Below, one piece after another: positions 13,904-52,140 of a DNA stretch of 64,000 nucleotides. The notes under the pieces are model-generated. The model worked only from the letters and a program-made list of their open reading frames with translations, had not been told where the DNA came from and searched no databases. Numbering within the stretch: position 1 is the stretch's first letter; every line of letters starts with the position of its first letter. This DNA comes from Mugilogobius chulae (Eukaryota), in assembly GCA_046056395.1 (NCBI GenBank), contig CM100124.1:574968-638967 (forward strand), in the 5' to 3' direction. The translations under genes and the position numbers were made by a program.

Positions 13904-14005
13904 GACCTGACGGCCATCGGAGTCACTAAACCTGGACATCGCAAGAAGATTTCTCTGGAGATCACTCAGCTCAACATCGCAGAGTGGCTCCCGGAGTTTA
14001 TCCCG
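13904..14005 (+). CDS. caskin1: Caskin exon, second half of SAM domain 1
   Basis: cag|GAC CTG...CCG|gtaaga; translates to [34 protein letters not shown] (Caskin1 reads [34 protein letters not shown]); phase 0/0. Confidence 0.85.
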
Positions 14006-15500
14006 GTAAGAAACGCAAACATACATGTAAACAACAACAAACAAACATCGCAGAGTGGCTCCCGGAGTTTATCCCGGTAAGAACGCAACGTACATGTAAA
14101 CAACAACAAACAAACATCGCAGAGTGGCTCCCGGAGTTTATCCCGGTAAGAAACGCAAACATACATGTAAACAACAACAAACAAACATCGCAGAGTGGCT
14201 CCCGGAGTTTATCCCGGTAAGAAACGCAAACATACATGTAAACAACAACAAACAAACATCGCAGAGTGGCTCCCGGAGTTTATCCCGGTAAGAAACGCAA
14301 CATACATGTAAACAACAACAAACAAACATCGCAGAGTGGCTCCCGGAGTTTATCCCGGTAAGAAACTCAAACATACATGTAAACAACAACAAACAAACAT
14401 CGCAGAGTGGCTCCCGGAGTTTATCCCGGTAAGAAACTCAAACATACATGTAAACAACAACAAACAAACATCGCAGAGTGGCTCCCGGAGTTTATCCCGG
14501 TAAGAAACGCAAACATACATGTAAACAACAACAAACAAACATCGCAGAGTGGCTCCCGGAGTTTATCCCGGTAAGAAACGCAACATACACGTAAACGACA
14601 ACAAACAAACATCGCAGAGTGGCTCCCGGAGTTTGTCCCGGTAAGAAACACAAATATCTACTGTAAACAACAACAAACAAACATCGCAGAGTGGCTCCCG
14701 GAGTTTATCCCGGTAAGAAACACAAACATACACGTAAACAACAACAAACAAACATCGCAGAGTGGCTCCCGGAGTTTATCCCGGTAAGAAACGCAAACGT
14801 ACATGTAAACAACAACAAACAAACATCGAGATGCTCCCGGAGTTATCCGGTAAGAAAAAACAACATGTAAACAAAACAAACAAACATCGAGAGTGGCTCC
14901 CGGAGTTTATCCCGGTAAGAAACGCAAACATACATGTAAACAACAACAAACAAACATCGCAGAGTGGCTCCCGGAGTTTATCCCGGTAAGAAACGCAAAC
15001 ATACATGTAAACAACAACAAACAAACATCGCAGAGTGGCTCCCGGAGTTTATCCCGGTAAGAAACGCAAACATACATGTAAACAACAACAAACAAACATC
15101 GCAGAGTGGCTCCCGGAGTTTATCCCGGTAAGAAACGCAAACATGATACACAGTCCGGAGTTTATCCGGTAAGAAACCAAATACATGTAAACAACAACAA
15201 ACAAACATCGCAGAGTGGCTCCCGGAGTTTATCCCGGTAAGAAACGCAAAACATGTAAACAACAACAAACAAACATCGCAGAGTGGCTCCGAGTTTATCC
15301 GGTAAGAAACGCAAAATACATGTAAACAACAACAAACAAACATCGCAGAGTGGCTCCCGGAGTTTATTCCGGTAAGAGAAACGCAAACATAACATGTAAA
15401 CAAAAAAAACAACACAACAAACATCGCAGAGTGGCTCCCGGAGTTTATTCCGGTAAGAGACGCAAATATGTACTGTAAACAACAACAAACAAACAAACAA
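13966..15500 (+). repeat. 71-bp minisatellite, about 21 copies, each unit = last 32 nt of the SAM1 exon + GT donor + ~39 nt of intron
   Basis: unit atcgcagagtggctcccggagtttatcccg|gtaagaaacgcaaacatacatgtaaacaacaacaaacaaac repeated head-to-tail from the genuine exon end. Confidence 0.9.
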
Positions 15501-15769
15501 ACACACAACAAACAAACATCACAGACCGGCTCTAGTCCGTAGTAGTATTTTATTAACTGAAAGAAGAATTAAAACCCCGTATCATTCCGGCGTCCCTTCG
15601 AAGAGACGTCCCACTTTTTCTTTATAAATTCCATTTTGTTGAGTGTCTGAAAAAAACTATGAAGCACCTGTAAAGGTTAAATATAAAAATCCCATTGTAT
15701 CCCTTTTATTTAGAGTAAAATCAGCCTCTGGGACGATCCAGACTCAGATTTCTACTGGAAACCTCCAAA

Positions 15770-16225
15770 TAAAAAAAAGTCCTCAAAAATTCAAACATTT
15801 TAACAGGACTTTTGTATTGGCTCCACCTAGATTCTTTTGAGTAATTTTAGGTCCTAAAACACATTTTTACCTCAATCACCCTCAGCTTTTACAGAGGAAT
15901 GGTCAAAACCCCAAATCTGCCAAATCTAGAGTCATTTATGTCTAAACAGCAGCTTTACCAATCCTTTTAATTACCAAAACATTTAGGTGGAATTTAGATT
16001 GTGATTTTCTTTTGTTTGGAGAAAGTTCTCACTTCTGATGAGCCTGTTGGACATCAGAAGAAAAAACTACAGATACAGCTTTAAAAAGACCCCAGACATT
16101 TGCCTGAGCTCCAAAGGATCAGGAACAGTTTTAGTTTGAATTTTTACAGATTTTAGTCAGACGTGTGAGGGGAAAAGGACGGAATGAGAAGCATGAAGAT
16201 AGAGTTTAAATCACATGTAATAGTT
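15770..16225. repeat. ~450-bp interspersed repeat, copy 1 (copy 2 at 51690-52140)
   Basis: long near-identical alignment including cacttctgatgagcctgttggacatcagaag (an internal palindrome). Confidence 0.8.
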
Positions 16226-17199
16226 TATGTTCTGTAAAAATTACAGCTGGGCTGCGATTTTTTTTGTAATCGTGATGAATCGCATGCTTGAGCTGCGATT
16301 CCGATTAATCGCATTTTACACAGAAAGTTCAATAAATTGCTTTTTTAACCCTTTTTTCTCCAAAATGTAATTTTTTAAAAAAAGTATATTTAAGGTTCTT
16401 CATTATGTAGAGTGTACAATTCTGCACATTCTGTGGTATTTTGGTTTGATGCATAATTTTAGCACCAAATTATACATTATACATAACTCAGTTTTACATA
16501 ATAATATGAGCAGTGTGAATCAGTTTGGATATTTTTAAGATCAGAATGTTATTTCATCTTGTTTAGGCTGAACAGAAATGTACAAATCCAAGCTAATGGT
16601 TCTACAACATTTTCAGTCCAGTTCAGGTAAAATTTGGGCGAAACTTTACAGAAATTTTAGAGACATGGACAGTTCCCACAGGAGTAGAAACTCAGACCAC
16701 GTCGTAATTATTACAATTTACATGAGGCCGTGCGAATAGTTCTTTTGTTTGACAGAAATGTAATATTTCTAACTTTTCAGTATTTTTTCTGGTGGGAAAA
16801 AAGTCCCTGGCCTGGTCCTCTCGGGTCAAAATAACTTGGGAAGACAACAGATTCTATAATTTTTCAAAAGTTGACATCTGGGACCAACCATGAAAGTTTC
16901 ATGTTGGATCAGAGAATTGTATTTTATTGACAAAACACCCCAAAGATAACACAATAATCCATTCTGACAATAAAATAAAAAATAAGCTTCAGTTGAATTG
17001 CTGTTGTATTTATTTCTCAAATGTTCATCGTCAGGTTTGAAGCCCGAGACATGTTGTAGATCTGCTTTTGTCGTTTGGGGTTTGATGCTGTGGAACCTTT
17101 GGCTGTTTCCTCCTGTTGACCTTTGTGTTCTGTAAATACATCCAAACAATCTTCACTGGACGCTGTTTTGAAAGCAAAGATTTGCTGCTAAACAAGCGC

Positions 17200-17960
17200 G
17201 ATTGCAACTTGTGTCACCACCAAACTTCTGCACAAATATAAGTATTCATGCCTGAGTTTGGTCACATATCTACATGTCCGTTTCTTTATAGACATGAGTC
17301 CAGTGGTTTATGGCTGAACATGTCTGGATATATGTCTCACCCGGGTGTTTAAGGGCGTATAGGAATCTGCTGCTGTCGTGTTCAAGCCTCTCTCTCTCTG
17401 CGTCTGCAGATAGAGTCGACAATCAAGGCTCACTGTCGGCGCTGCTTGCATCAGAAGCTCCTCTATGGTCTTTCTTAGCTCCTCTATAACTCAAAAGTTG
17501 TCGATGGCAGCTTGCGTCGCCCAAACTCCTGCACAAATATAAGTATTCATGCCTGAGTTTGGTCACACATCTATATGTCCGTATCTTTACAGACATGAGT
17601 CCAGCGGTTTAAGGCTGAACATGTCTGGATGTGTTTCTCACCCGGATGTTTAAGTCTGGCAGGTGTTGGAAGCCATGCCAGGAAACAAACGATGTCAATA
17701 CCGGTTCCTTAGCAAGCTTGTGTCGCCACCAAACTCTTGCACAAATATAAATATTCATGCCTGAGTTTGGTCACATATCTATATCTTTATAGACATGAGC
17801 TTGGGTTTCATCAGCGGTTTAAGGCTGAAGATGTTCGGATGTATTTCTTACCCGGTTGTTTAAGGGGCGTACAGGTCAGGCAGGTGTTGTTGCTAAAAAC
17901 ATTGGGGCCAAGCCAGGAAACAAACGATGTTAAAGCCGGTTCCTTAGCGATCTTGTGGAA
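17200..17960. repeat. ~250-300-bp tandem repeat, 3 copies, at the 3' flank of the nested antisense gene
   Basis: 'caccaaacttctgcacaaatataagtattcatgcctgagtttggtcacatatctacatgtccg...' recurs at ~17215, ~17520, ~17725; a sub-segment ctctctctctgcgtctgcagatagagtcgacaatc... reappears inside the coding region at ~18040. Confidence 0.8.
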
Positions 17961-17964
17961 CTCC

Positions 17965-20900
17965 TTAATAGAAAAATTGGATGTTGCTGTGGTGGTCCAG
18001 GCCAAGCTGAACCAGGCGGCTGTTTCCAATCTGTCTCTCTCTCTCTTGGCGTCTGCGGATGGAGTCGACGATCGGGTCCACGCTGACGGAGCTGTTTCCA
18101 TCAGAAGCTATAGCCGTCCGGTCCTCTACACGATCACCACCAGTCGGCTCAGGGATGACAGATCTCGAATACTTCTCCTGCAGCTGGGTCATCAACGCCT
18201 TGGCTGCGTCCCTCTCCTCGCCGATCCTCCGTATCTCTTCGTTGGCTTCGACACACTCCTCTGTCTTCTTCACCAGCTCATCCCTGACTCTCTCAAACGT
18301 CCGTCTGCTCTTCATAAGCTTGTCTTCGGCTTGGTCGCAGTTCTCTCTGTACCTCTTCATCTCTCCCAGGGCATTGTCGCGCTCCTCTATGGCTTCGACG
18401 CACTCCTGTCTCTTCTTTATCAGCTCATCCATGTTTTGGTCGAACTTCTTTATGAGCGAGTTTTTGGTTTGTCCCACTCTTCTTTCATTCTTCTTTGCTC
18501 GTGCTTAGCGTCTTCGCACTCCTTTCTGTACTTCCTCTTCTCAACCCAGACACTTTCGTAATCCTGTCTGCACTTTCTCAGCTCTTCTCTAGTTTAATCA
18601 CATTCCTCTCTACTCTCTCTCAGCTCCTCTCTGATTGTCCTCCTCTGCGGTGTTTTTGTCCGCTCTAAGCCTTCACCTTTCAGACAGCTCTTGTTGTCCT
18701 TTCGCTCCGTTTCTAGCTCTTCCTTAAGCCAGTCTCGCTCACGATTACAAGCGAAGACTTGTTACTTTCCGTTTCCTCAACTTCTGAACTTTTCTTCTGT
18801 CGACTCTTGATCTCGTCCATTTCCCTTTCGTGACCCTCCTTCAGCCGCTTCAAGTCGTTCTCCAGCTTCTTCTCCAGTCCCTGACGTACTTCCTTAAACT
18901 CGGCATATTTACCTTTCATGACGGCTTTCATCTCCTCTTCCATCTCTCGTTTGGTGGAGCTTAAGCGTTCTTCTTTGGCTTTCTGGAGCTGTTCTTTTTC
19001 CTCGTCGAGCTCAGCCTGGATTTGTTCCAATTGTTGCTTGTGCATTGCTTTTAGTTCTTTTGCATTTTCCTCCTGCTGCTTTTGAAGTTTAGCTTCGAGT
19101 CTGGTATTTTCTTTCCCGATTTCATCCTCCAGATTCTCGCGGAGCTGCTCTAGTTTAGCCTCAGAGTCCTCTTTAAGCTTTTCTTCTTCCTCTCTCAACT
19201 TTGCAGACAGCGACTGACGTAGAGTCTGGAGTTGCATATCATTCTCAGCCTTTAGAAGCTTCTCTTGAGCTTTGAGACTTTCTCCAAGTCGCTCTAATTG
19301 TAGCTCGGATTCCTGCTTAAGTCTTTCTTCTTCCTGCGCTCTTTTGCTAAAATCGATTCACGCAAACGTTCTAGTTTCTCTTCAGTCTCTGCCTTCAGAC
19401 GATCCTTCTCCTCTTTGATCAACCTCTCTCGCCTCAGCCGATCAGTTCTAAGCTCTTCTTCAAGTCGCTCTAATCTGTCTTCCTCCTCTTTTCTCTTTTC
19501 TCTCATTCTCTCGTCAGTCTCAGCCTTTAGACGCTCCCCCTCCTTCCAGACCATCTCCTCCTGCACAATCCGATCGATTTGGATGGCTTCCCGTAAGTCC
19601 CGTAGTTCTTTCTCAGATTCCCGCTTCAGTCTTTCTTCCTCCTCTTTTCTCTTTGACAAAAACGACTGACGCATAGTTTCCACTCTCTTGTCAGTCTCAG
19701 CCTTTAGACGTTCCTCCTCCTTCCAGATCATCTCCTCTTGCACAATCCGATCGATTTGGATGGCTTCCCGTAAGTCCTGCAGTTCTTTCTCAGATTCCCG
19801 CTTCAGTCTTTCTTCTTCCTCTCTTCTCTTCGCTGACAGTGACCGGCGCAGTTCGCTCAGTCGTTCTTCGCTTTCAGCCTTCAGCCTCTCTTCTTCGTCT
19901 CTCTTCAGTGTTAGTTCTTCTGTCACTTCCAAACTCAAATCAGGCTGGAGCTTTTGAGACGAGGGCTGGTCAAACTTGTCGACCTGGGTGATCTGGGAGA
20001 AAGATCTTTGTCTTCAGTCATGCTTACTGCTTCCTCGTTGAAGTCATTGTCATAATTTGATGGACTGTCATCACAGAAAGAGTCTAAGTCTACGTCTGTG
20101 TTGTCGTCATCTTCTTCAATCTCGGGCTTATCAGACAAGTCTGATGAAGCTCGGGAAAGACTGAGCGAACGAACGGAAGAATGGTCTATTTCCGCTTCTA
20201 AAACCTCACTCACCTGCCCTTCCTTTTCAAAAACGTCATTGTCGTAGCTTAACGGTGGTGTTGGATCATCAAAGACTGAATTTAGCGATTTTAAGTCCAG
20301 ATCTGTGTCTTCTTCCAGTGAACTACGATCTCCATTATCTGCAGGTAGTTTCAAATCATCCCCCCAAAAGTCATCTTCTGTAGCTTTTCCGTCTCCTCCC
20401 TCATCATCTTCTTTAAGAACCTCGAGTGAAGCTCGTCATAAAAGTCTGATAAATCTTCAGAAAAACTGGACGATCTGGGAGAAAGATCCTCATCCTCTTC
20501 ATTGCCTTCTTCAGAGAACTTCTCGTCTCTTGCCTTTAACCTGATCTGTTCCTCCTCATCCAGCTCCTCGTTGTAATCAAAGTCTGAATTTAGCGATTTA
20601 GGTCCAGATCTGTGGCTGCGTTATTAGGAGCCATGTCTTCTTCCAGCGAACCAAGATCTCCAATATCTAAGTTTATATTTTCTGCTGCTTTGAGAGAAGC
20701 AGCAGTGAGAAAGAGCGTGTCTTTCTTCGTCTTTGTTCTTGCGGTTGAACGTTGTTCCTGCGCTGCTTCACGCCTGGCCTTACACCTCTGCAGTAGACGG
20801 TCAATGGAGTCTTCTTCCTCGTCGTCTGTTTCTGTCTCTGAAGGCAGGGCTGTGTTATTCTCTTCGGTGTCTGAGTGCAAGTCGCGTTCGGTTGAATATT

Positions 20901-21406
20901 GTTCCTGCGCTGCTTCACGCCTGGCTTTAAACCTGGCTTTAAACCTCTGCATTAGAAGGTCAAGGGAGTCTTCTTCCTCGTCGTCCGTTTCTATGTCCGA
21001 AGGCAGGGCTGTGTTCATCTCTTCGGTGTCTGAGTGCAAGTCGCGTTCTGTCGTTTCCATTTTCGCTGCTCCTTGGTTTTTCACATTCAGCTCTTCGTCG
21101 CTCGAAAGCACATCCAGGAGCTTTCTTCTCGCTCGTCTCTGTGAAATCTGAATCATTACCGACCTCTGTGGGAAAGAACGTGTCTTTCTTCGTCTTTGTT
21201 CTCGCGGTTGTGAGTTGTTCCTGCGCTGCTCTGCGCCTGGCTTCACACCTCTGCACTAGACGTTCAAAGGAGTCTTCTTCCTCGTCGTCCGTTTCGATCT
21301 CCGAAGGCAGGGCTGTGTTCATCTCTTCGGTGTCTGAGTTCAAGTTCAGCTGCAGGTCTCGTTCTTGCGTTTCCATTTTCAGTGCTGTTTTGGTTTTCGT
21401 ATTCAT
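17965..21406 (-). CDS. intronless antisense gene nested in a caskin intron: acidic N-terminal repeats plus long E/K/R-rich coiled-coil; open frame broken in at least 5 places as assembled
   Basis: consecutive minus-strand ORFs 20960-21406, 20590-21246, 19935-20354, 19294-19938, 18713-19237 and 17965-18477 abut or overlap in different frames; three ~150-aa N-terminal repeats (METxERDLHSDTEEMNTALPSxIETDDEEEDS..RCKARREAAQEQ), then EERLKAE/REEEERLKRESEKEL heptad-like repeats. Confidence 0.6.
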
Positions 21407-21600
21407 CTCCTCGTCGCTCGAAGCACGTACGGGAGTTTGTTCTCGCTCATCTTTGTGAAATCTGATCTATCTGTGTCGTACAGCGTCAGATAAACTGTTT
21501 TTACGTGGGAGCTCTGTGTCTGTGTGGCGTTCGGTTCGCTTCTCGTCGAGTTGTGACAGAATCGCTGACGTCACAGCCTAGAAAAGCCTAGAAAGGTTGT
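21407..21600 (-). promoter_or_regulatory. putative promoter/5' UTR of the nested gene, containing a palindromic CRE TGACGTCA
   Basis: tgacgtca at ~21567-21574, ~160 bp upstream (on the minus strand) of the ATG at 21406; an upstream in-frame ATG is followed quickly by a stop. Confidence 0.3.
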
Positions 21601-22295
21601 TGCTATGGTAACGTATTAGTTTAGTTTAGTTTATTTAATGAAACAGGGACAATGCACAATATACATTAACCTAAAATAGGAGAGATGCTTTGTATCAGGT
21701 TATAGCACAAGTCGTCCCTGGCAGGTTGATTTAACAGCAGATAAAATAATAATAATTATAAATTTAATTTATACTATAGTGCTGTTCTAGACACTCAAGA
21801 CGCTTTACAGTCAAAGGCAGTTGGGTCATTCTACAGAAACGGTGCCTTTTGTGTCCTTTAGTGGAAAATGAAAATATACAAAAATCATCAAAGTGTGTGC
21901 TTTGAATTTTAAATGTTTATTTAGAGTGTTCAATTTCAAAATCCAGATATTTCAAAAACTGCTCCTTGTTTTAGAGACACAGCCGGGAGAGCTGTTGATG
22001 TTGTTGAGGAGCATGGTACTAAAATGGCCGGTACATCTTAAAACTTCTGCCACATCATTCACACTCCTACAGGTCATTCATTCTCTCAGCACTTCACACA
22101 GTCGCTTTAAAATACACACTCACATCAGTCCGTGTAAAGAAAACTTAGTATTTTATGTTTTGCCAGAATGTGACAGTGATGAAATGAACGGCCTTTCCTG
22201 TCATGAATCCATAAAGAACTTTTATACAATGATTCAAATGGTCTCAGGGCAGATTTACAGGCCTGGGACCAACTTGTGATGCACTAAAAGAAACG

Positions 22296-23800
22296 TGGGA
22301 TAGGGCTGCACGATATTGACAACAAATCTAATTGCGATTTTTTTGTTTGATATTGCGATTTCGATTCGATATTCGATATTTATTAACATGTGTACATGGT
22401 TTTTTTTCTGTTGAGCAGGCCATTTTGCAACAATATTAAAAATAAACTGCCCTACTAATGAAAAGTTACATACATACATTTTAGATTGATTGATTGGATG
22501 TTGTGCTTGATAATTCAGTTGGCCTGTATAAACAGTAACTAAAGTAACTTACCCCAGGCTCACACTGCCTCCAGTCCAACTCCGGTGCAGCCACCGGACC
22601 GGTCTGCTACGGTGGGTGACTCACATTAGCTACGGTGGTCTACAGTCCTGCTGCAGCCACAGGCTCTGCTGCCGACCTCGCCAGACCCCGAACTCACGGA
22701 GGTTCACGTTCAACGTCAGAGAATAATACATCCATGGGGAGAATACGCGATCGCTGAGCACTTTTTTCTCTCTCTCTCTTTCGCTGAGCACAAATGTAAA
22801 CAAAGAACACGCGCCGAGTTTTGAGCTTGTTTCACGTCAGTTGATTTTCTGTTTGATTTTTCGCCCACAATGGGTAAGTACGGAGGTTTATTTACATTCT
22901 ATGTGTTACATAATCGTGTAAATGTCCTATTTTTACGTATTTTGTATTATTAGTGGTAACGTAATGATTTTATTTTGAAAACTACCGGATTTACTTCACC
23001 CGCGCTCGCTTGGTTTCCTGTTATCGTGTTTTGTTTTCACAACTTCATCAAAAAGGGCTCCGGCGTCCGGCCAAAATTTGAAACAAACGAAACGGATTCG
23101 GAGCGCCGGATTGGCCGTACCGGAGACACCGGACTGGACTGTAGCTGTGTGAGCCACTCTCGGACTTTTCAAGTTAAGTAAAGACTCCGGTGGCTGCATC
23201 GGAGTTGGACTGGATGCAGTGTGAGCCCGGGGTTAGACTATTATTTAACCTGTGACAGAAATATACATCTACACCAGCAGATGGCGCCAACGTCCCCTGT
23301 AGAGCTCTGGCGTGTTATACTGGAAAAAAAACAAAAAAGATTGCTAAAACTCCAATAACAATGTTTATCTCTTAAGGACTGAGCAAACCTGCGTGACTCT
23401 GCGGTGTTTACGGACTTATATCAGTCATGCAGCTTTTATTCACTTGGATTTTATGTTTGTGAAGAAAACAAACTGGATTTGCCTCGGAAAATATTGATGC
23501 TTTGCCTGTTCAGGTAAGCGGCTAAAGCTAGCAGCATCTGCAAAATGTGACTCTTTATTTATGAGTGATTTTATTGAATACGCACTAGAACAGTCATGAA
23601 AGTCATTTTGTGCAGTTTAAAGGCCTGTTGCTGTGGTGCTGCCCTGTGTTCACTTTCGTGGTGCGCTGTGTCCAATAAAAATAAAAAAGGAGGCTAAAGC
23701 GTAAGAAAAGGAGGAATATCGAGGCTTTTGCAATTAGGTAATCACAGTTGTCAGTATTGATTCGATATCAATATATCGTGCAGCACTAATGTGGGACAAT
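22296..23800. mobile_element. DNA-transposon relic with TIR GGGCTGCACGATAT(A)TTGA
   Basis: 22298 gggctgcacgatattgacaa matches the reverse complement of 23765-23795 ttgattcgatatcaatatatcgtgcagcactaat; carries family-X repeat copies internally. Confidence 0.55.
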
Positions 23801-23939
23801 AATTTCATTCAGATACGTAAGTCCCGAAGTCAAAGATACTCAAAAGAGTTTCTACTGAAAAAGAATGTCCAGTTAGTCATGTTGTGCTAAAAATGTAAAT
23901 CTACGAAGCTTAAACCTGGTGTCCACAACACAAGTTTAT

Positions 23940-24345
23940 TCTACTGGCAGGAGGACTTGGGGCGTGGCTTAGCTCTCTTGTATTCTATTGGCAGGAGGAC
24001 TTGGGGCGTGGCTCAGCTCTCTTGTATTCTATTGGCAGGAGGACTGGGGGCGTGGCTTAGCTCTGTTTACTCTATTGGCAGGAGGACTTGGGGGCGTGGC
24101 TCAGCTCTGTTTATCTGTATTAACAGGAGGACTTGGGGGCGTGGCTCAGCTCTCTTGTATTCTATTAACAGGAGGACTTGGGGCGTGGCTCAGCTCTCTT
24201 GTTTTCTATTAACAGGAGGACTTGGGGCGTGGCTCAGCTCTCTTGTTTCTATTACAGGAGGACTTGGGGCGTGCTCAGCTCTCTTGTATTCTATTGGCAG
24301 GAGGACTTGGGGGCGTGGCTTAGCTCTCTTGTATTCTATTAACAG
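23940..24345 (+). repeat. 43-45-bp tandem repeat, about 10 copies, each unit = polypyrimidine tract + AG acceptor + first ~24 nt of the SAM2 exon
   Basis: unit ctcttgtattctattggcag|GAGGACTTGGGGCGTGGCTCAGCT; the final copy runs into the genuine exon (GAGGACTTGGGGGCGTGGCTCAGCTCCATAGGCCTGCTGCAG, translating to [14 protein letters not shown]). Confidence 0.85.
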
Positions 24346-24484
24346 GAGGACTTGGGGGCGTGGCTCAGCTCCATAGGCCTGCTGCAGTATCAGAGGAGAC
24401 TTTGTGAAAACGGATACGACTCGATGGAGATCGTCAAAGACCTGAGCTGGGAGGATCTGCAGGAGATCGGCATCACCAAACTGG
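24346..24484 (+). CDS. caskin1: Caskin exon, SAM domain 2 (major part)
   Basis: aacag|GAG GAC...AAA CTG G|gtcagg; translates to [47 protein letters not shown] (Caskin1 reads [47 protein letters not shown]); phase 0 start matches the 14005 donor. Confidence 0.85.
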
Positions 24485-24739: not shown

Positions 24740-25262
24740 GATTTTTAAGTGAAATGAAAGAGAGAGAGAGAGGAGAGAAAGAGAGAGTGAGAGAGAGAGA
24801 GAAAGAATAGAGAGAGAGTGAAGAGAGATAAGAGAAAGTAGAGAAAGAGAGAGGGAGAAGTGAGAGAAAGAAAGAGTGAAGAGAGAGGAGAAGAAAGAAG
24901 AGAGAGTGAAGAGAGAGAAAGTGAAAAGAGAGAGAGAAAGAGTGAAAAGAGAGAAAGAGGAGAGAGAAAGGAGAAGAGAAAGAAAGAGAGAGAAAGAGGA
25001 AGAGAGAGAAGAGAAAGAAAGTGAAAAGAGAGAGAAAAAAGAGTGAAAAGAGAAGAGAGAGAAGAGGAAGAGAGAAAGAAGAGAGAAAGAGTGAAGAGAG
25101 AAGAAAGAAAGAGTGAAAAAGAGAGAGAGAAGAGAAAGAGAGAGAGAGAAAAAGAGTGAAAAGAGAGAGAAAGGAGAGAGAGAGAGAGAGAGAGAGAAAA
25201 GAAAAATGAGAGAGAGGAGAGTGAAGAGAGAAGAGAGAGAGAGAAAGGGGATGGAGAGGAAA
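24740..25262 (+). repeat. GA-rich purine tract (~520 bp)
   Basis: gagagagagaggagagaaagagagagtgagag... low complexity. Confidence 0.9.
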
Positions 25263-25955: not shown

Positions 25956-27834
25956 GGTAAGAGACATATTAACCATCAGAAACAGTTTAAACAGCTCATA
26001 CTCCAGCAGCAGGTAACAAACGTATAAAACAGTTTAAACAGATACAGTCACTGTAGATTAGAACTGGGCACAGAAAAACGTTTCCTATTTGAAACCGACA
26101 GAAAACGTTAGAGAAATACTGGAGCTGAAAACATAATGTCGTTTCTGTGCCATTTTTTGGATCCTTGACTTTAAATCTCTGCGTCAATAAGCAGACACAG
26201 AAACACCACATTGCCACATGGCGCTCTATAGAGGGATTTTTTGTTTCTCAACACGGCCGTTGCACACACTCAACCTACAGAAAGAGCCGCCGCTCACAGA
26301 CACAAACAGTGAAACAAGTGTAAAAAGCTCTGTTGTCAGTAACTACAAGAGTTTATCTGTGAGAAAACTAAAGTTCTGCTGCTAAATCAACATTTGTGAA
26401 TGAAACTCCACCTTCGACCCTTAAAAGTGACATTCAGTCTGTCAGACCGGTTCAGACCTGATCCAAACAGCTGAGAGCAGACTGTGGCCTTGTTTTATTC
26501 AAACTAGTTTCCCCAGCTAAGCAGATGGACAGCGGCTCTTTCTGTATAACACATGCGCAGTAGAGGAAAGTGACGTCGACTGAAAATACGTGTGTTGTAA
26601 ATATAGTTTGACAAAAGTAACATTATTAAAGAGAAACTAAACTCAGAATCCACTTTTTTTCACTGTCAGACTGTGTATATGTGGTCAAAATTGAATTATC
26701 TACTGTTTCCAGGCCTTTTTTGGACATTTTTGTGCAAACTCGCTCATTTTGGAGTTATGTGTGCAAAACCACGACTGTACTGCCGATGGCAAACTCTGTC
26801 ACTGCATTTTCAGTACCCGCTGACGTCACAGTGTATTGACGAGGCAGACGAGCCGCCCAGATGATTTATCTAAACTCCTCCCTCTGACAACGCTGCGTAT
26901 TGACATCAGCCTCATGTGGCTCAGTTTGTTGAGCGAGTGGTGCGTTGTGCCACCACAAGTTCAAAGATGCGCTGGTTCGAAACTCGTGCCTGTGTTTTTT
27001 CATTTTTAGAAAATACTCACATAACAGGCTCATGTGCTTATGTAACGGCCTAAAGAAAAGGTTTCATACGTATGATTTGCAAAGCAAAAATAAAAAATCT
27101 TTACGTGTAAGCAAAGACTTGGTTCTGTTGCTGTACAGCTCTCTCAAATCTCACGTCAGGACCAGGACCACTGTTCATATTTGGTGCTGTCAATCAATGA
27201 CTGTTCACATCCACTGGGCGTCTCTTAAAAGTCCTCCGGGCATCTCCCACTTTTGCGAGTCTGTTTGAGGTTCAGTTGTGGGCGGAGTTAGTCTCTGAAA
27301 GCGTGTTTAGCCTCACTTTAAAGGCTGAAAAATTATTTTAGTCTTATATTTAACAGAACCGTTAAAGAACCAGTCTCGAAAACCTAGTACTGTTAAAGTA
27401 TCGGAAAAAAAATCTAAGGGTAACCAGCCCTAGTATTCTCCATATTCAGTTTTTGCAAATCTTCAAAATAATATTCACAACATGATCTATAAATTGATAA
27501 ATTGCATAGTTTCAGCTCAGAAGTAAATCCCTAAAAAAAACACAACTCATGACTCTTAAAGTTGTTGTAAGGAAGCAGAGTTTGCAGCTCTGATCACAAA
27601 CACTGGTGGTGGTTCCTCAAGGCTGCGTCTTGGAGCCACAGATGTTTTAAAGTAAATAACATGTTCCATATGTTAAAGCAGAAAATACTGTGGATTTTTT
27701 TATTAGACCTTAGAGATGAACCTGTGTTTCCAGACTCTGTAAATGTGGAGCTTTAGACCATGTTGTGTTTTATATTTAAATAACGAGACAGTTCTATAAC
27801 TCCAGTCACATGATTAAACCTTGTGTTTCTTCAG

Positions 27835-28547
27835 GACGGAGACTTGAGCGCTGAGATTCCCTGTGCTCTCTCTCGACCCGGAGAGTCTCTCAGTCTGAGT
27901 CTGTCCCACAGCGATGAGAGCCTGGCCGAGCGCTCCCGAGGGTCCGGACGCTCTCAGGACACGCCCCAGGACACGCCCCTGGACCCGCCCACAGACCTGC
28001 CCGAGTCCAGAGACCAGACCCGGACCAAACACGTCCCTCAAGGCACCGCCACGGTCTTCAAGTACCCGGCCATCCCAGCGAAGCCAAGAGTGTGTGGGTC
28101 TCCTCATGGCCCCGCCTCTTCTCCACGTGGTCCCGCCTCTTCTCCCCGTGGCCCCGCCTCCTCCCCCCGTGGCCCCGCCCTCCTGAAGCAGGCGCAGGTG
28201 TCCCGGGGCTCTCTGTCGGACGGAGAACAGGGCGAGGATGAGGAGGAGACGGTTCTTCCTCCATCCTACGCCACACTGAGCCGCCGCCGCTCGCAGAGAG
28301 GCGCTCCCGGAGGTGGCGAGGGGGAGCGCGTGGGGCGGAGCCAGTCCTTCGCCATCAGAGCGAGAAAGAAAGGCCCGCCCCTCCTCCACCCAAACGTCTC
28401 AGCTCCGTCAGCTCTCCGAGTGACGAGCAGAGCGACAGCAGTGTGTCCGACAGCCCGGGACGAGTACGGACCCTCGCCAAGGCCCTGGAGCCACGCCCAC
28501 AAGAGCCACGCCCTCAAGAGGCCTGTCCGCAAGAGCCACGCCCACAG
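27835..28547 (+). CDS. caskin1: Caskin exon, Pro/Ser-rich region (RSQSFAIRARKKGPP motif)
   Basis: cttcag|GAC GGA GAC; ORF 27823-28611 includes ...SPRGPASSPRGPASSPRGP...YATLSRRRSQRGAPGGGEGERVGRSQSFAIRARKKGPPLLHP (Caskin1 reads RVGRSHSVRAP...RSQSFAVRPRKKGPPPPPP); donor CACAG|gtacgc; the frame at the 3' end is inconsistent with the start, implying an indel. Confidence 0.75.
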
Positions 28548-28722: not shown

Positions 28723-29660
28723 GAGGGCTCTGCAGCTGGGAGGCGGGGCCAGAGCGCTGTGACGTCAGACTCGGAGTCGGAGGAGTTACGAGCTTTGGGC
28801 GGAGCTTCACAGAGCAGCTCCAGCGAGTGCATCCCATTCGCAGAGGAAGGAAATCTCACCATCAAACAGAGACCCAAAGCCCCGCCTCCTCCCGCGCCGA
28901 AGACGTCCTGGGACTGGACCAGGACCGGACCAGGGACCAGACCAAAGAGCAGCAGCAGACCACGCCGGAGTTTAACCTGAAGGAGTCGGACACGGTGAAG
29001 CGCAGGCACAAACCCAAAGACTCCGGCGACGGTTCTCCAGGCAGAAGTCCCCAGGAACCAGACAGCGCCACGTCCAGTCTGGAGGAGCTCAGGGCCTTTC
29101 CTCCGAGGCCGGCCCAGGACCTAGCGGCGTCCCCGGGGTCTGTGCTGAGAGCTGCTTCTCCGCTCAGGGCTGGTTCTCCGCTCAGGGCTGGCTCTCCGCT
29201 CCGGTTTGAGTCGTCCCTCAGACCTGGATCTCCGCTCAGACCTGCCCCGGATCGAGCCTCTTCTCCCGGTTCTCCGCTCCGGTTCGAGTCCTCCCTCAGA
29301 CCCGGTTCTCCGCTCAGACCTGCCCCGGACCGAGCCTCTTCTCCCGGTTCTCCGCTCCGGTTCGACTCCACCCTCAGACCTGGATCTCCGCTCAGAGTTG
29401 CCCAGGACAGAGCTGCGTCTCCAGGTTCTCCGCTCCGGTTCGACTCCACCCTCAGACCTGGTTCTCCGCTCAGAGCTGCCCAGGACAGAGCTGCGTCTCC
29501 GGGGTCTCTGCTGCGGCCGAGCCCCTCTTCAGACCCGGCTCTCCTGGTTCTCCCGGCTCTCTTGGTTCTCCCGGTTCTCCTGGTTCTCTGCACAGGCCTT
29601 GTCTCTCTCCCAAACCTGCCGTGGCGCCTAAACCTGTGCGCCAGAGTCTGCTCAGTCAAG
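28723..29660 (+). CDS. caskin1: Caskin exon, Pro-rich region with ESDTVKRR motif and a 20-aa SPLR coding tandem repeat; frame changes twice within the exon as assembled
   Basis: cacag|GAGGGCTCT; three successive frames read EGSAAGRRGQSAVTSDSESEELRALGG, then FNLKESDTVKRRHKPKD...(GSPLRFESSLRPGSPLRPAPDRASSP) x5, then SPKPAVAPKPVRQSLLSQ|gtcaga (Caskin1 reads ILTESDTVKRRPKAKE; PPVSPKPVLTQPVPK). Confidence 0.75.
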
Positions 29661-51689: not shown

Positions 51690-52140
51690 CCTTCAAATAA
51701 AAAAAGTCCTCCAAAATTCAAAAACTTTAATAGGACTTTTGTATTGGCTCCGCCTACATTTGTTTGAGTAATTTTAGGTCCTAAAACACATTTCTCCCTC
51801 AGTGACCTTCAGCTTTTACAGAGGAATGATCAAAACACAAAATATTCCAAATCTAGAGTCATTTATGTCTCAGCTGTAACACCAGCTTTACCTGTCCTTA
51901 TATCTACCAAAAAACATGTAGGCTGAATTTAGATTGTGATTGTCTTTTGTTTGGAGAAAGTTCTCACTTCTGATGAGCCTCTTGGACATCAGAAGTAAAA
52001 ACTACAGACACAGCTTTAAAAAGACTCCAGACATTTGCCTGAGCTCCAAAGGATCAGTTTTACATTTAGATCATTTTTGTCAGACGTGTGAGGGGAAATA
52101 GGTCTGAATGAGAAGGAGTTAAAGTCACGTGAAGTAAAAA
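51690..52140. repeat. ~450-bp interspersed repeat, copy 2 (see 15770-16225)
   Basis: alignment to copy 1. Confidence 0.8.

Follow-up and report, generated by a model that had tools for sequence, protein, structure and literature searches.

A purine-rich block of about 3.5 kb lies antisense within the 10.3-kb intron between the SAM1 and SAM2 exons of caskin in the goby Mugilogobius chulae, and its minus strand reads like coding sequence. This locus raises the question of whether such a block is a working gene, the remains of one, the cargo of a mobile element or a spurious product of biased base composition. We examined it in a stretch of 64,000 nucleotides (nt) of contig CM100124.1 (assembly GCA_046056395.1, positions 574,968 to 638,967), which we refer to as the window and within which all coordinates are counted. 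As judged from its sequence, the locus is an architecture-changed variant of a known protein family, and it represents one copy of a dispersed multi-copy gene family found so far only in the annotation of M. chulae. A preliminary description of this DNA had regarded it as a possible orphan of no known family. The C-terminus of the encoded product instead ties the block, via its M. chulae paralogues, to CEP164-like proteins.

The nested block and its relatives in Mugilogobius chulae

The coding-like signal on the minus strand is real, but it is not a single open reading frame (ORF). Between 17.9 and 21.5 kb the minus strand is purine rich, with the GC skew of the plus strand reaching -0.43 and its AT skew -0.49. 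Minus-strand ORFs of 139 to 218 amino acids (aa) occupy all three frames (17965-18477, 18713-19237, 19294-19938, 19935-20354, 20590-21246, and 20960-21406). The signal, its strand and its place between the SAM1 and SAM2 exons are as first described, while the continuity claimed for it is absent: as assembled, the block falls into nine ORF pieces spread over three frames, broken up by eight 1-nt frameshifts and an in-frame TAA. The product of about 1100 aa proposed earlier cannot be encoded by this assembly. When each piece is read in its own frame, the conceptual product comes to about 1155 codons.

We carried out the protein search that the preliminary description had proposed, using as queries a frame-joined conceptual protein of 1151 aa, its C-terminal 259 aa, the last ORF and a profile of the family C-terminus. 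The 1151-aa query matched only P0001 (E = 9e-187) and P0002 (E = 2e-103) among 5.8 billion proteins, both of them M. chulae entries labeled “hypothetical protein.” The C-terminal query added the M. chulae models P0003 and P0004. When the last ORF was run exhaustively with HMMER against 1.84 billion representatives, the sole new member was P0007, also from M. chulae; the other matches were known family members and two spurious TPR proteins. The profile further recovered P0008 (E = 2e-30), P0009 and P0010 (E = 2e-12). The family comprises at least seven loci on four chromosome-sized records of M. chulae (44.3, 42.5, 39.3, and 38.7 Mb), annotated as the hypothetical proteins WMY93_000385/000384, 023486, 008111, 008584, 017524, 017526 and 016719 (GenBank KAK79…). 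P0004 and P0001 are locus-tag neighbors (WMY93_000384/000385) and represent one locus split into two models, and the P0003 model covers no more than a fragment of 363 aa. Scanned against Pfam, the conceptual protein, six family proteins and the flanking ORFs showed only weak coiled-coil noise, and no second copy of the block was found within the 64-kb window.

Some of the family models resemble annotation artifacts. These include the split of P0001 and P0004, the out-of-frame tail of P0002 (WMY93_023486) and P0009 (WMY93_017526), whose model joins a CEP164-like C-terminal part to a C-type lectin domain.

The window copy shares with the M. chulae family proteins the MSENKL start, the acidic repeats, an identical coiled-coil unit of about 90 aa and the C-terminus. 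It differs from them in having 48 to 72% identity in pieces, its own internal duplications and no protein model in the databases; the paralogues differ among themselves by 30 to 50% in protein sequence. The start MSENKL…SSDEE(L/M)N is common to P0001, P0002 and the window copy, which fixes the ATG at the upper end of the block (Table 1). An acidic N-terminus followed by a helical region rich in E, K and R had been described earlier, and both are present; across about 90 aa of the latter, identity with P0001 is 100%. The N-terminal repeats are arranged otherwise than first described. In place of three acidic repeats of about 150 aa, the sequence contains three shorter acidic cores, each of about 53 to 59 aa (21345-21168, 21041-20864, and 20882-20705) and a tandem duplication of about 105 codons that takes in the start codon and about 17 nt of the 5' leader. 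The duplicated start codon lies inside the ORF body, and at about 21133 its ATG has become ACG.

Within the E/K/R-rich region, 177 bp are duplicated internally and in frame (19504-19850). Between the two copies, which differ by 9 synonymous and 12 nonsynonymous changes, the ratio of nonsynonymous to synonymous substitution rates (dN/dS) is 0.31 when read in the coding frame (p = 0.02), compared with 0.9 to 1.06 in the shifted frames; for the acidic repeats A and C the ratio is 0.53 and not significant. The ratio for the internal repeat indicates past constraint, after these duplications.

Kinship with CEP164, probable intron loss and promoter-like motifs

CEP164 (NPHP15) is a distal-appendage protein of the mother centriole. 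It is normally encoded by a single-copy gene essential for ciliogenesis, and its WW domain binds a proline-rich motif of TTBK2. The C-terminus of the human protein, …LLQLGLDEHNRVKVYRF, resembles the …LVQLGLDHHSNIQFFY of the window copy, and this likeness had pointed to CEP164 before the profile search, as a lead and not as a test. The only match to the C-terminal profile outside M. chulae was P0011, a “centrosomal protein of 164 kDa-like” from the mudskipper Boleophthalmus pectinirostris that ends in …LIQLGLDDNNEIRVFHY, with E = 1.3 at database scale. In direct comparisons, BLASTP aligned P0011 with P0010 over 110 aa (E = 2e-10) and with P0008 (E = 1e-9), and hhalign of P0011 against the family profile gave 92.7% (E = 4e-7, 44 columns). 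The QLGLD..NI columns of the profile alignment are invariant. P0008 and P0010 form a bridge between the window-type members and the CEP164-like sequence, and the family C-terminus is homologous to that of the mudskipper protein. Given the pairwise matches of P0011 and these bridging members, we identify the C-terminal tail of the family, over its last 45 to 110 residues, as a homolog of the CEP164 tail on the basis of sequence similarity.

The likeness to CEP164 lies in the terminal motif (…[LI][VI]QLGLD..[NS]NI…Y in the family and the mudskipper and human endings given above), in the 60 to 110 aa or so that precede it in P0008 and P0010, and apparently in the layout, in which an acidic, serine-rich linker leads to a long E-rich helical region and then to a short C-terminal tail. 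The family differs from CEP164 in its new N-terminus (MSENKL…) with lineage-specific acidic repeats, its much shorter C-terminal tail, its multiple copies and its lack of a WW domain, without which no recruitment of TTBK2 is predicted. Pfam detected no WW domain in the conceptual protein or in P0001 and P0002, nor did a six-frame pattern scan of the whole window reveal a WW-like exon. Searches with phmmer at E ≤ 1e-3 returned no CEP164 match for the conceptual protein or the last ORF, and similarity beyond the tail is below detection at database scale.

The block is intronless, as the preliminary description had claimed. We aligned a composite paralogue (P0001 and P0003) to the minus-strand DNA with a frameshift-aware dynamic program, and the two run collinearly from 21450 to 17968 without any insertion the size of an intron. 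Introns between the ORF pieces were considered and ruled out: neighboring pieces are separated by just -1 to 11 nt, and every GT…AG candidate is short, at 13 to 46 nt. Introns therefore cannot explain the frame shifts, and the copy is intronless. The CEP164-like gene of the mudskipper, in contrast, is multi-exon and adjoins a DeoC-family gene. It has 7 coding exons for 338 aa, and a 610-bp intron precedes its last coding exon, inside the shared C-terminal region. At this one comparable intron position the window copy, contiguous inside the caskin intron, is continuous. From this difference we infer intron loss, most simply through retroposition of an ancestor, and the best explanation for the intronless, WW-less state is that an ancestral retrocopy arose and was duplicated afterward. 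Like processed retrogenes and retropseudogenes found in introns, the block is an intronless copy of multi-exon relatives, lies on the opposite strand, is lineage specific and has a frame that may have decayed. Unlike them, it showed neither a poly(A) remnant nor a target-site duplication, and no close parent gene was identified. The family also seems to have spread after gaining its own start codon and perhaps a promoter, which points to later duplication at the DNA level. The earlier suggestion of a lineage-restricted, possibly retro-derived gene is reasonable, with close relatives found only in M. chulae.

Two palindromic motifs lie upstream of the ATG. An X-box of the RFX type, just past the upper coordinate of the preliminary description and missed there, is the only match in the window to the RFX consensus GTHNYYATRRNAAC; 0.43 matches are expected (a palindrome, counted on both strands). 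X-boxes mark RFX-regulated cilium and basal-body genes, so the motif, although noticed post hoc, fits a relative of CEP164. No X-box was found at the mudskipper CEP164-like locus. The palindromic cyclic AMP response element (CRE) reported earlier is present, 116 bp upstream of the ATG. It occurs 5 times in the window (21566, 26821, 28760, 34325, and 52370, one of them inside a caskin coding exon) against 0.79 expected, and 0 of 100 shuffles reached 5. Five occurrences mean that the CRE is not specific to the nested gene, and the X-box appears to be the more specific regulatory clue of the two.

Frame breaks and the state of the gene

Seven of the eight frame breaks are apparent single-base losses, and the eighth (about 21121) is a 1-nt gain. 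At least five are mended by one extra base in a short run of the same base, which exactly restores the alignment to the paralogues (Table 1). The host gene shows the same kind of break. We identified it as caskin by its tandem SAM domains, its Caskin-Pro-rich domain (E = 3.6e-21 once frame-corrected) and its Caskin-tail domain, all on the plus strand around the block; in the spliced SAM exons, two stretches match SAM_1/SAM_2 in Pfam (E = 5e-39). In the raw frame the Caskin-Pro-rich match covers profile positions 7-77 at 63.1 bits and ends in …IRARKKGPPL. With one C added to a CCCC run at about 28380, the frame reads …RARKKGPPPPPPPKRLSSVSS… and the match covers positions 12-89 at 75.8 bits. A second shift lies about 500 bp downstream (about 28880-28950), between IPFAEEGNLTIKQRPK and FNLKESDTVKRR. 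The stretches …CIPFAEEGNLTIKQRPKAPPPP and …TPEFNLKESDTVKRR, caskin motifs known from human CASKIN1 and CASKIN2, are about 100 nt apart and in different frames. Since caskin retains its SAM, Pro-rich and tail domains and is unlikely to be dead, the assembly probably carries 1-nt deletions in base runs, and under-calling of such runs is the likely cause of the caskin shifts. Among the paralogue models, P0002 ends in 23 residues that read the family sequence out of frame. Because the host has a similar 1-nt break and paralogue models end out of frame, we judge that many of the breaks in the block are probably assembly errors, of the kind seen in base runs of long-read assemblies. A published M. 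chulae assembly, which may not be that of the window, is a 29x PacBio RSII/DBG2OLC hybrid (PMC7782490); this 2021 description was all that a literature search on the method of the newer M. chulae assembly yielded.

As side observations on caskin, the 1-nt correction falls inside the conserved motif KKGPPPPPPPKRLSSVSS (28376-28384), and there is a possible third frame shift near 29.55 kb.

On this evidence we lean toward the view that the locus is an intact or nearly intact copy of an intronless, CEP164-derived family of the goby lineage, with breaks that are mostly assembly errors. Several points weigh against it. The TAA is a substitution rather than a base-run indel, the breaks at about 19983 and 18745 and the 1-nt gain at about 21121 are not in obvious runs of one base, and the nested block, at 8 breaks in 3.5 kb, is more densely broken than caskin, with 2 to 3 in about 2.2 kb of coding sequence. 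No A-tract follows the AATAAA hexamers and no flanking target-site duplication was found, as would be expected if the copy is old or secondarily duplicated. The protein searches returned no Logan or ENA-derived protein resembling the family, and the X-box was a post hoc observation. The homology to CEP164 reaches only the last 45 to 110 residues, by way of intermediates and one partial “CEP164-like” model, while the human experiments described below used 260 residues; any resemblance to human CEP164 in the N-terminal and coiled-coil parts, repeat pattern included, is putative.

The strongest competitor is a decaying pseudogene, in which the frameshifts and the TAA are real and the X-box and CRE are either relics or matches due to chance; the block would then be a dead duplicate or retrocopy drifting in the caskin intron. 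Nine disabling lesions in the assembled sequence, including a nonsense substitution and non-run indels, speak for decay, as do a start codon copied into the ORF body, a 3' end rearranged through tandem duplication and paralogue models that are themselves fragmentary or end out of frame (the P0001/P0004 split, P0003 at 363 aa and the tail of P0002). However, a host with SAM, Pro-rich and tail domains has similar 1-nt breaks, and seven single-base losses in eight indels, at least five of them in short same-base runs, are a signature of long-read consensus error, unlike the mixed-size indels of pseudogenes. The dN/dS of the internal repeat is below 1, and the pieces stay open in their own frames. 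A single stop in about 1155 codons, where 1.6 to 3.1 are expected (3.9% of substitutions being nonsense), is a weak discriminator, with a probability of at most one stop of 0.19 to 0.54. We regard decay as a serious alternative, though a less likely one.

Very unlikely, in our view, is a gene fragment captured and spread by a Helitron-like or Pack-type element or by a retroelement with an ORF1- or gag-like product. Dispersal over at least seven loci on at least four chromosomes, the tandem repeats at the 3' end and the fragments of interspersed repeats nearby (16000-16191 and 16640-16727) would suit such an element. The search result nonetheless identifies the product as neither ORF1 nor gag. 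Neither the conceptual protein nor its paralogues nor the ORFs on either side gave a Pfam match to a gag, reverse transcriptase, integrase, transposase or zinc-knuckle domain, and neither repeat families nor self-BLAST revealed long terminal repeats, as direct repeats, or terminal inverted repeats around 15.5 to 23.9 kb. The window holds no second copy, and a protein divergence of 30 to 50% among the paralogues is unlike a recent burst. Least credible of all is the idea that the block is an orphan or arose de novo, or that purine-rich, low-complexity DNA has given rise to a spurious ORF. The absence of a Pfam domain and the strong purine bias of the strand are what this would predict, and GA-rich blocks elsewhere in the window (7700-10100 and 24759-25247) do contain long ORFs in multiple frames and match weakly in tblastn. 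It is contradicted by collinear homology to annotated proteins along 1150 aa, nonrepetitive N- and C-terminal parts included (E = 9e-187 and 3e-72), by the significant C-terminal homology to CEP164-like proteins and by the frame-specific synonymous excess in the internal repeat.

If the intact-copy reading is right, the family would descend from the centriole distal-appendage protein CEP164 through an ancestral retrocopy and later duplication, with the window copy lying antisense in the caskin intron. The locus would be an intact or only recently disabled gene, with its own promoter-like region (the X-box and CRE within 165 bp of the ATG) and AATAAA signals downstream. Its putative product would run from the MSENKL start through the acidic repeats and the E/K/R-rich helix of about 590 aa to a CEP164-type end (…LVQLGLDxxxNIxxxY). 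Residues 1200-1460 of human CEP164 are necessary and sufficient for targeting to the mother centriole and bind Rabin8, the intact extreme C-terminus is critical, and the fragment, when overexpressed, displaces endogenous CEP164 and blocks ciliogenesis (PMC3529528). Recruiting TTBK2 through the WW domain is the key task of the N-terminal region (PMC8752127). Because a CEP164-type C-terminus and a long helical spacer are present while a WW domain is not, the product is, by analogy, likely a centriole-docking paralogue of CEP164 unable to recruit TTBK2. The C-terminus would dock it at the mother centriole and distal appendages or at the basal body, where it would bring no TTBK2 and might modulate or compete with canonical CEP164 or act as an accessory component, in RFX/CREB-driven cells such as spermatids or multiciliated cells. 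More speculative, and rather unlikely, is the idea that the Mugilogobius lineage amplified WW-less, intronless CEP164 derivatives with an X-box and CRE promoter as natural “decoy” or accessory distal-appendage proteins of spermatids or multiciliated cells, which would fill CEP164 docking sites without bringing in TTBK2 and so brake or modify ciliogenesis. Such decoys would mirror the dominant-negative Cep164-C construct that Schmidt et al. reportedly described in 2012.

Surroundings of the block and wider meaning

The positions of the block, its parts and its surroundings are collected in Table 1.

Table 1. Features of the nested block, its flanks and its host gene, in window coordinates (~, approximate)
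Feature	Position	Strand	Basis or remark
Purine-rich coding-like block	17965-21450	-	Stop at 17965-17967, ATG at 21448-21450
Start codon of the family N-terminus (MSENKL…)	21448-21450	-	P0001 and P0002 begin MSENKLLDELSSDEELN and MSENKLPDWLLSDEELN; frameshift-aware alignment begins here
Acidic N-terminal repeat region	20599-21447	-	Three DSDTEEMNTALPSEIETDDEEEDS…RC.ARR.AAQEQ cores; repeat families D1, D7, D12 and self-BLAST
Acidic Ser-rich “DLDLKSLNS…” region	19983-20598	-	NLDIGDLGSLEED-type motifs, 2 copies 328 bp apart; repeat families D10, D11; aligned to P0001, P0002
E/K/R-rich helical region (coiled coil or single alpha-helix)	18200-19982	-	~590 aa
C-terminal tail ending …NSRLVQLGLDHHSNIQFFY	17968-18199	-	Last 16 aa at 17968-18015; CEP164-type extreme C-terminus
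Eight 1-nt frame breaks	~21432, 21121-21130, 20595-20597, 20393-20407, 19983-20006, 19345, 18649-18751 (or 18744-18751), 18469	-	
Break, TT seen, TTT expected	~21432	-	
Break, AAA seen, AAAA expected	~20597	-	Restores DLDLKSLNS
Break, G seen, GG expected	~20393	-	
Break, AAAA seen, AAAAA expected	~19345	-	Restores SILAKRAQEEE
Break, AAA seen, AAAA expected	~18469	-	Restores EEWDKTKNSLIKKF
In-frame TAA	18594-18596	-	P0003 has Gln here (…KECDQTRD…)
X-box (RFX-type) motif GTTACCATAGCAAC	21599-21612	-	Perfect palindrome, ~150 bp upstream of ATG, 26 bp upstream of CRE
Palindromic CRE TGACGTCA	21566-21573	.	116 bp upstream of ATG
3' tandem repeat, probably 3' untranslated region	17199-17957	-	3 copies, periods ~301 and 210 bp
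AATAAA hexamers, candidate poly(A) signals	16923-17014, starting 17014 and 16928	-	First after the stop codon
caskin exon, end of SAM1	13904-14005	+	Donor GTAAGA directly after; Pfam SAM_1/SAM_2
caskin exon, start of SAM2	24346-24484	+	Pfam SAM_1/SAM_2 on spliced exons
Further caskin SAM exons	SAM1 ~11.85-11.97 kb; SAM2 ~25.8 kb	+	
caskin long Pro-rich exon	From 27.8 kb	+	
caskin tail exon ILDDIGTMFDDLADQLDAMLE*	~36.5 kb	+	Caskin-tail E = 8e-14

The 3' tandem repeat had been described as three copies of about 270 bp; the three copies are confirmed, with the unequal periods listed in Table 1. Also as described, the repeat shares sequence with the coding region: one of its copies includes a duplicate of the last coding segment, 17388-17459 matching 18035-18109 at 80% identity. 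In the mudskipper, the CEP164-like gene likewise has the end of its last coding exon (17 aa, …LIQLGLDDNNEIRVFHY) twice, at 23736-23816 and 26175-26225 in the coordinates of that locus, 2.4 kb apart and with 100% aa identity, and the family's 3' end seems to undergo tandem duplication readily.

At either end, the caskin SAM1-SAM2 intron consists of a tandem array made from the splice junction (window positions 13973-15520 and 23937-24371). In the 5' array a 71-bp unit recurs about 22 times at a period of 68-71 bp; it takes in the final 33 nt of the SAM1 exon along with the donor GTAAGA and 38 intronic nt. The 3' array repeats a 44-bp unit about 10 times, one that combines the polypyrimidine tract and the AACAG acceptor with roughly the first 22 nt of the SAM2 exon. 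Neither unit length is divisible by 3. With such arrays at both ends, the intron contains many potential cryptic donors and acceptors. An Rfam scan of the intron returned no noncoding RNA family. The interspersed-repeat fragments lie in its AT-rich part downstream of the nested gene and match other parts of the window at 86% identity (16000-16191 with 51935-52115 and 16640-16727 with 6458-6544). The two GA/AG-rich low-complexity blocks noted above contain ORFs that reach about 800 aa, on both strands and in several frames of each block, and their weak tblastn matches to the E/K/R-rich part of the family are compositional, not homologous.

The locus illustrates how fragments labeled “hypothetical protein” pile up in the annotation of one species, and how a real gene, together with the conserved gene that hosts it, can pass for a pseudogene when a long-read assembly contains 1-nt base-run errors. 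If the breaks in the block are real, it is one more dead intronic gene copy. If the CEP164 reading is true, an amplified derivative that has neither WW domain nor introns and carries a cilia-type promoter would amount to a natural experiment, separating C-terminal anchoring from the recruitment of TTBK2, and it could mark a lineage-specific change in the basal bodies of sperm or multiciliated cells.

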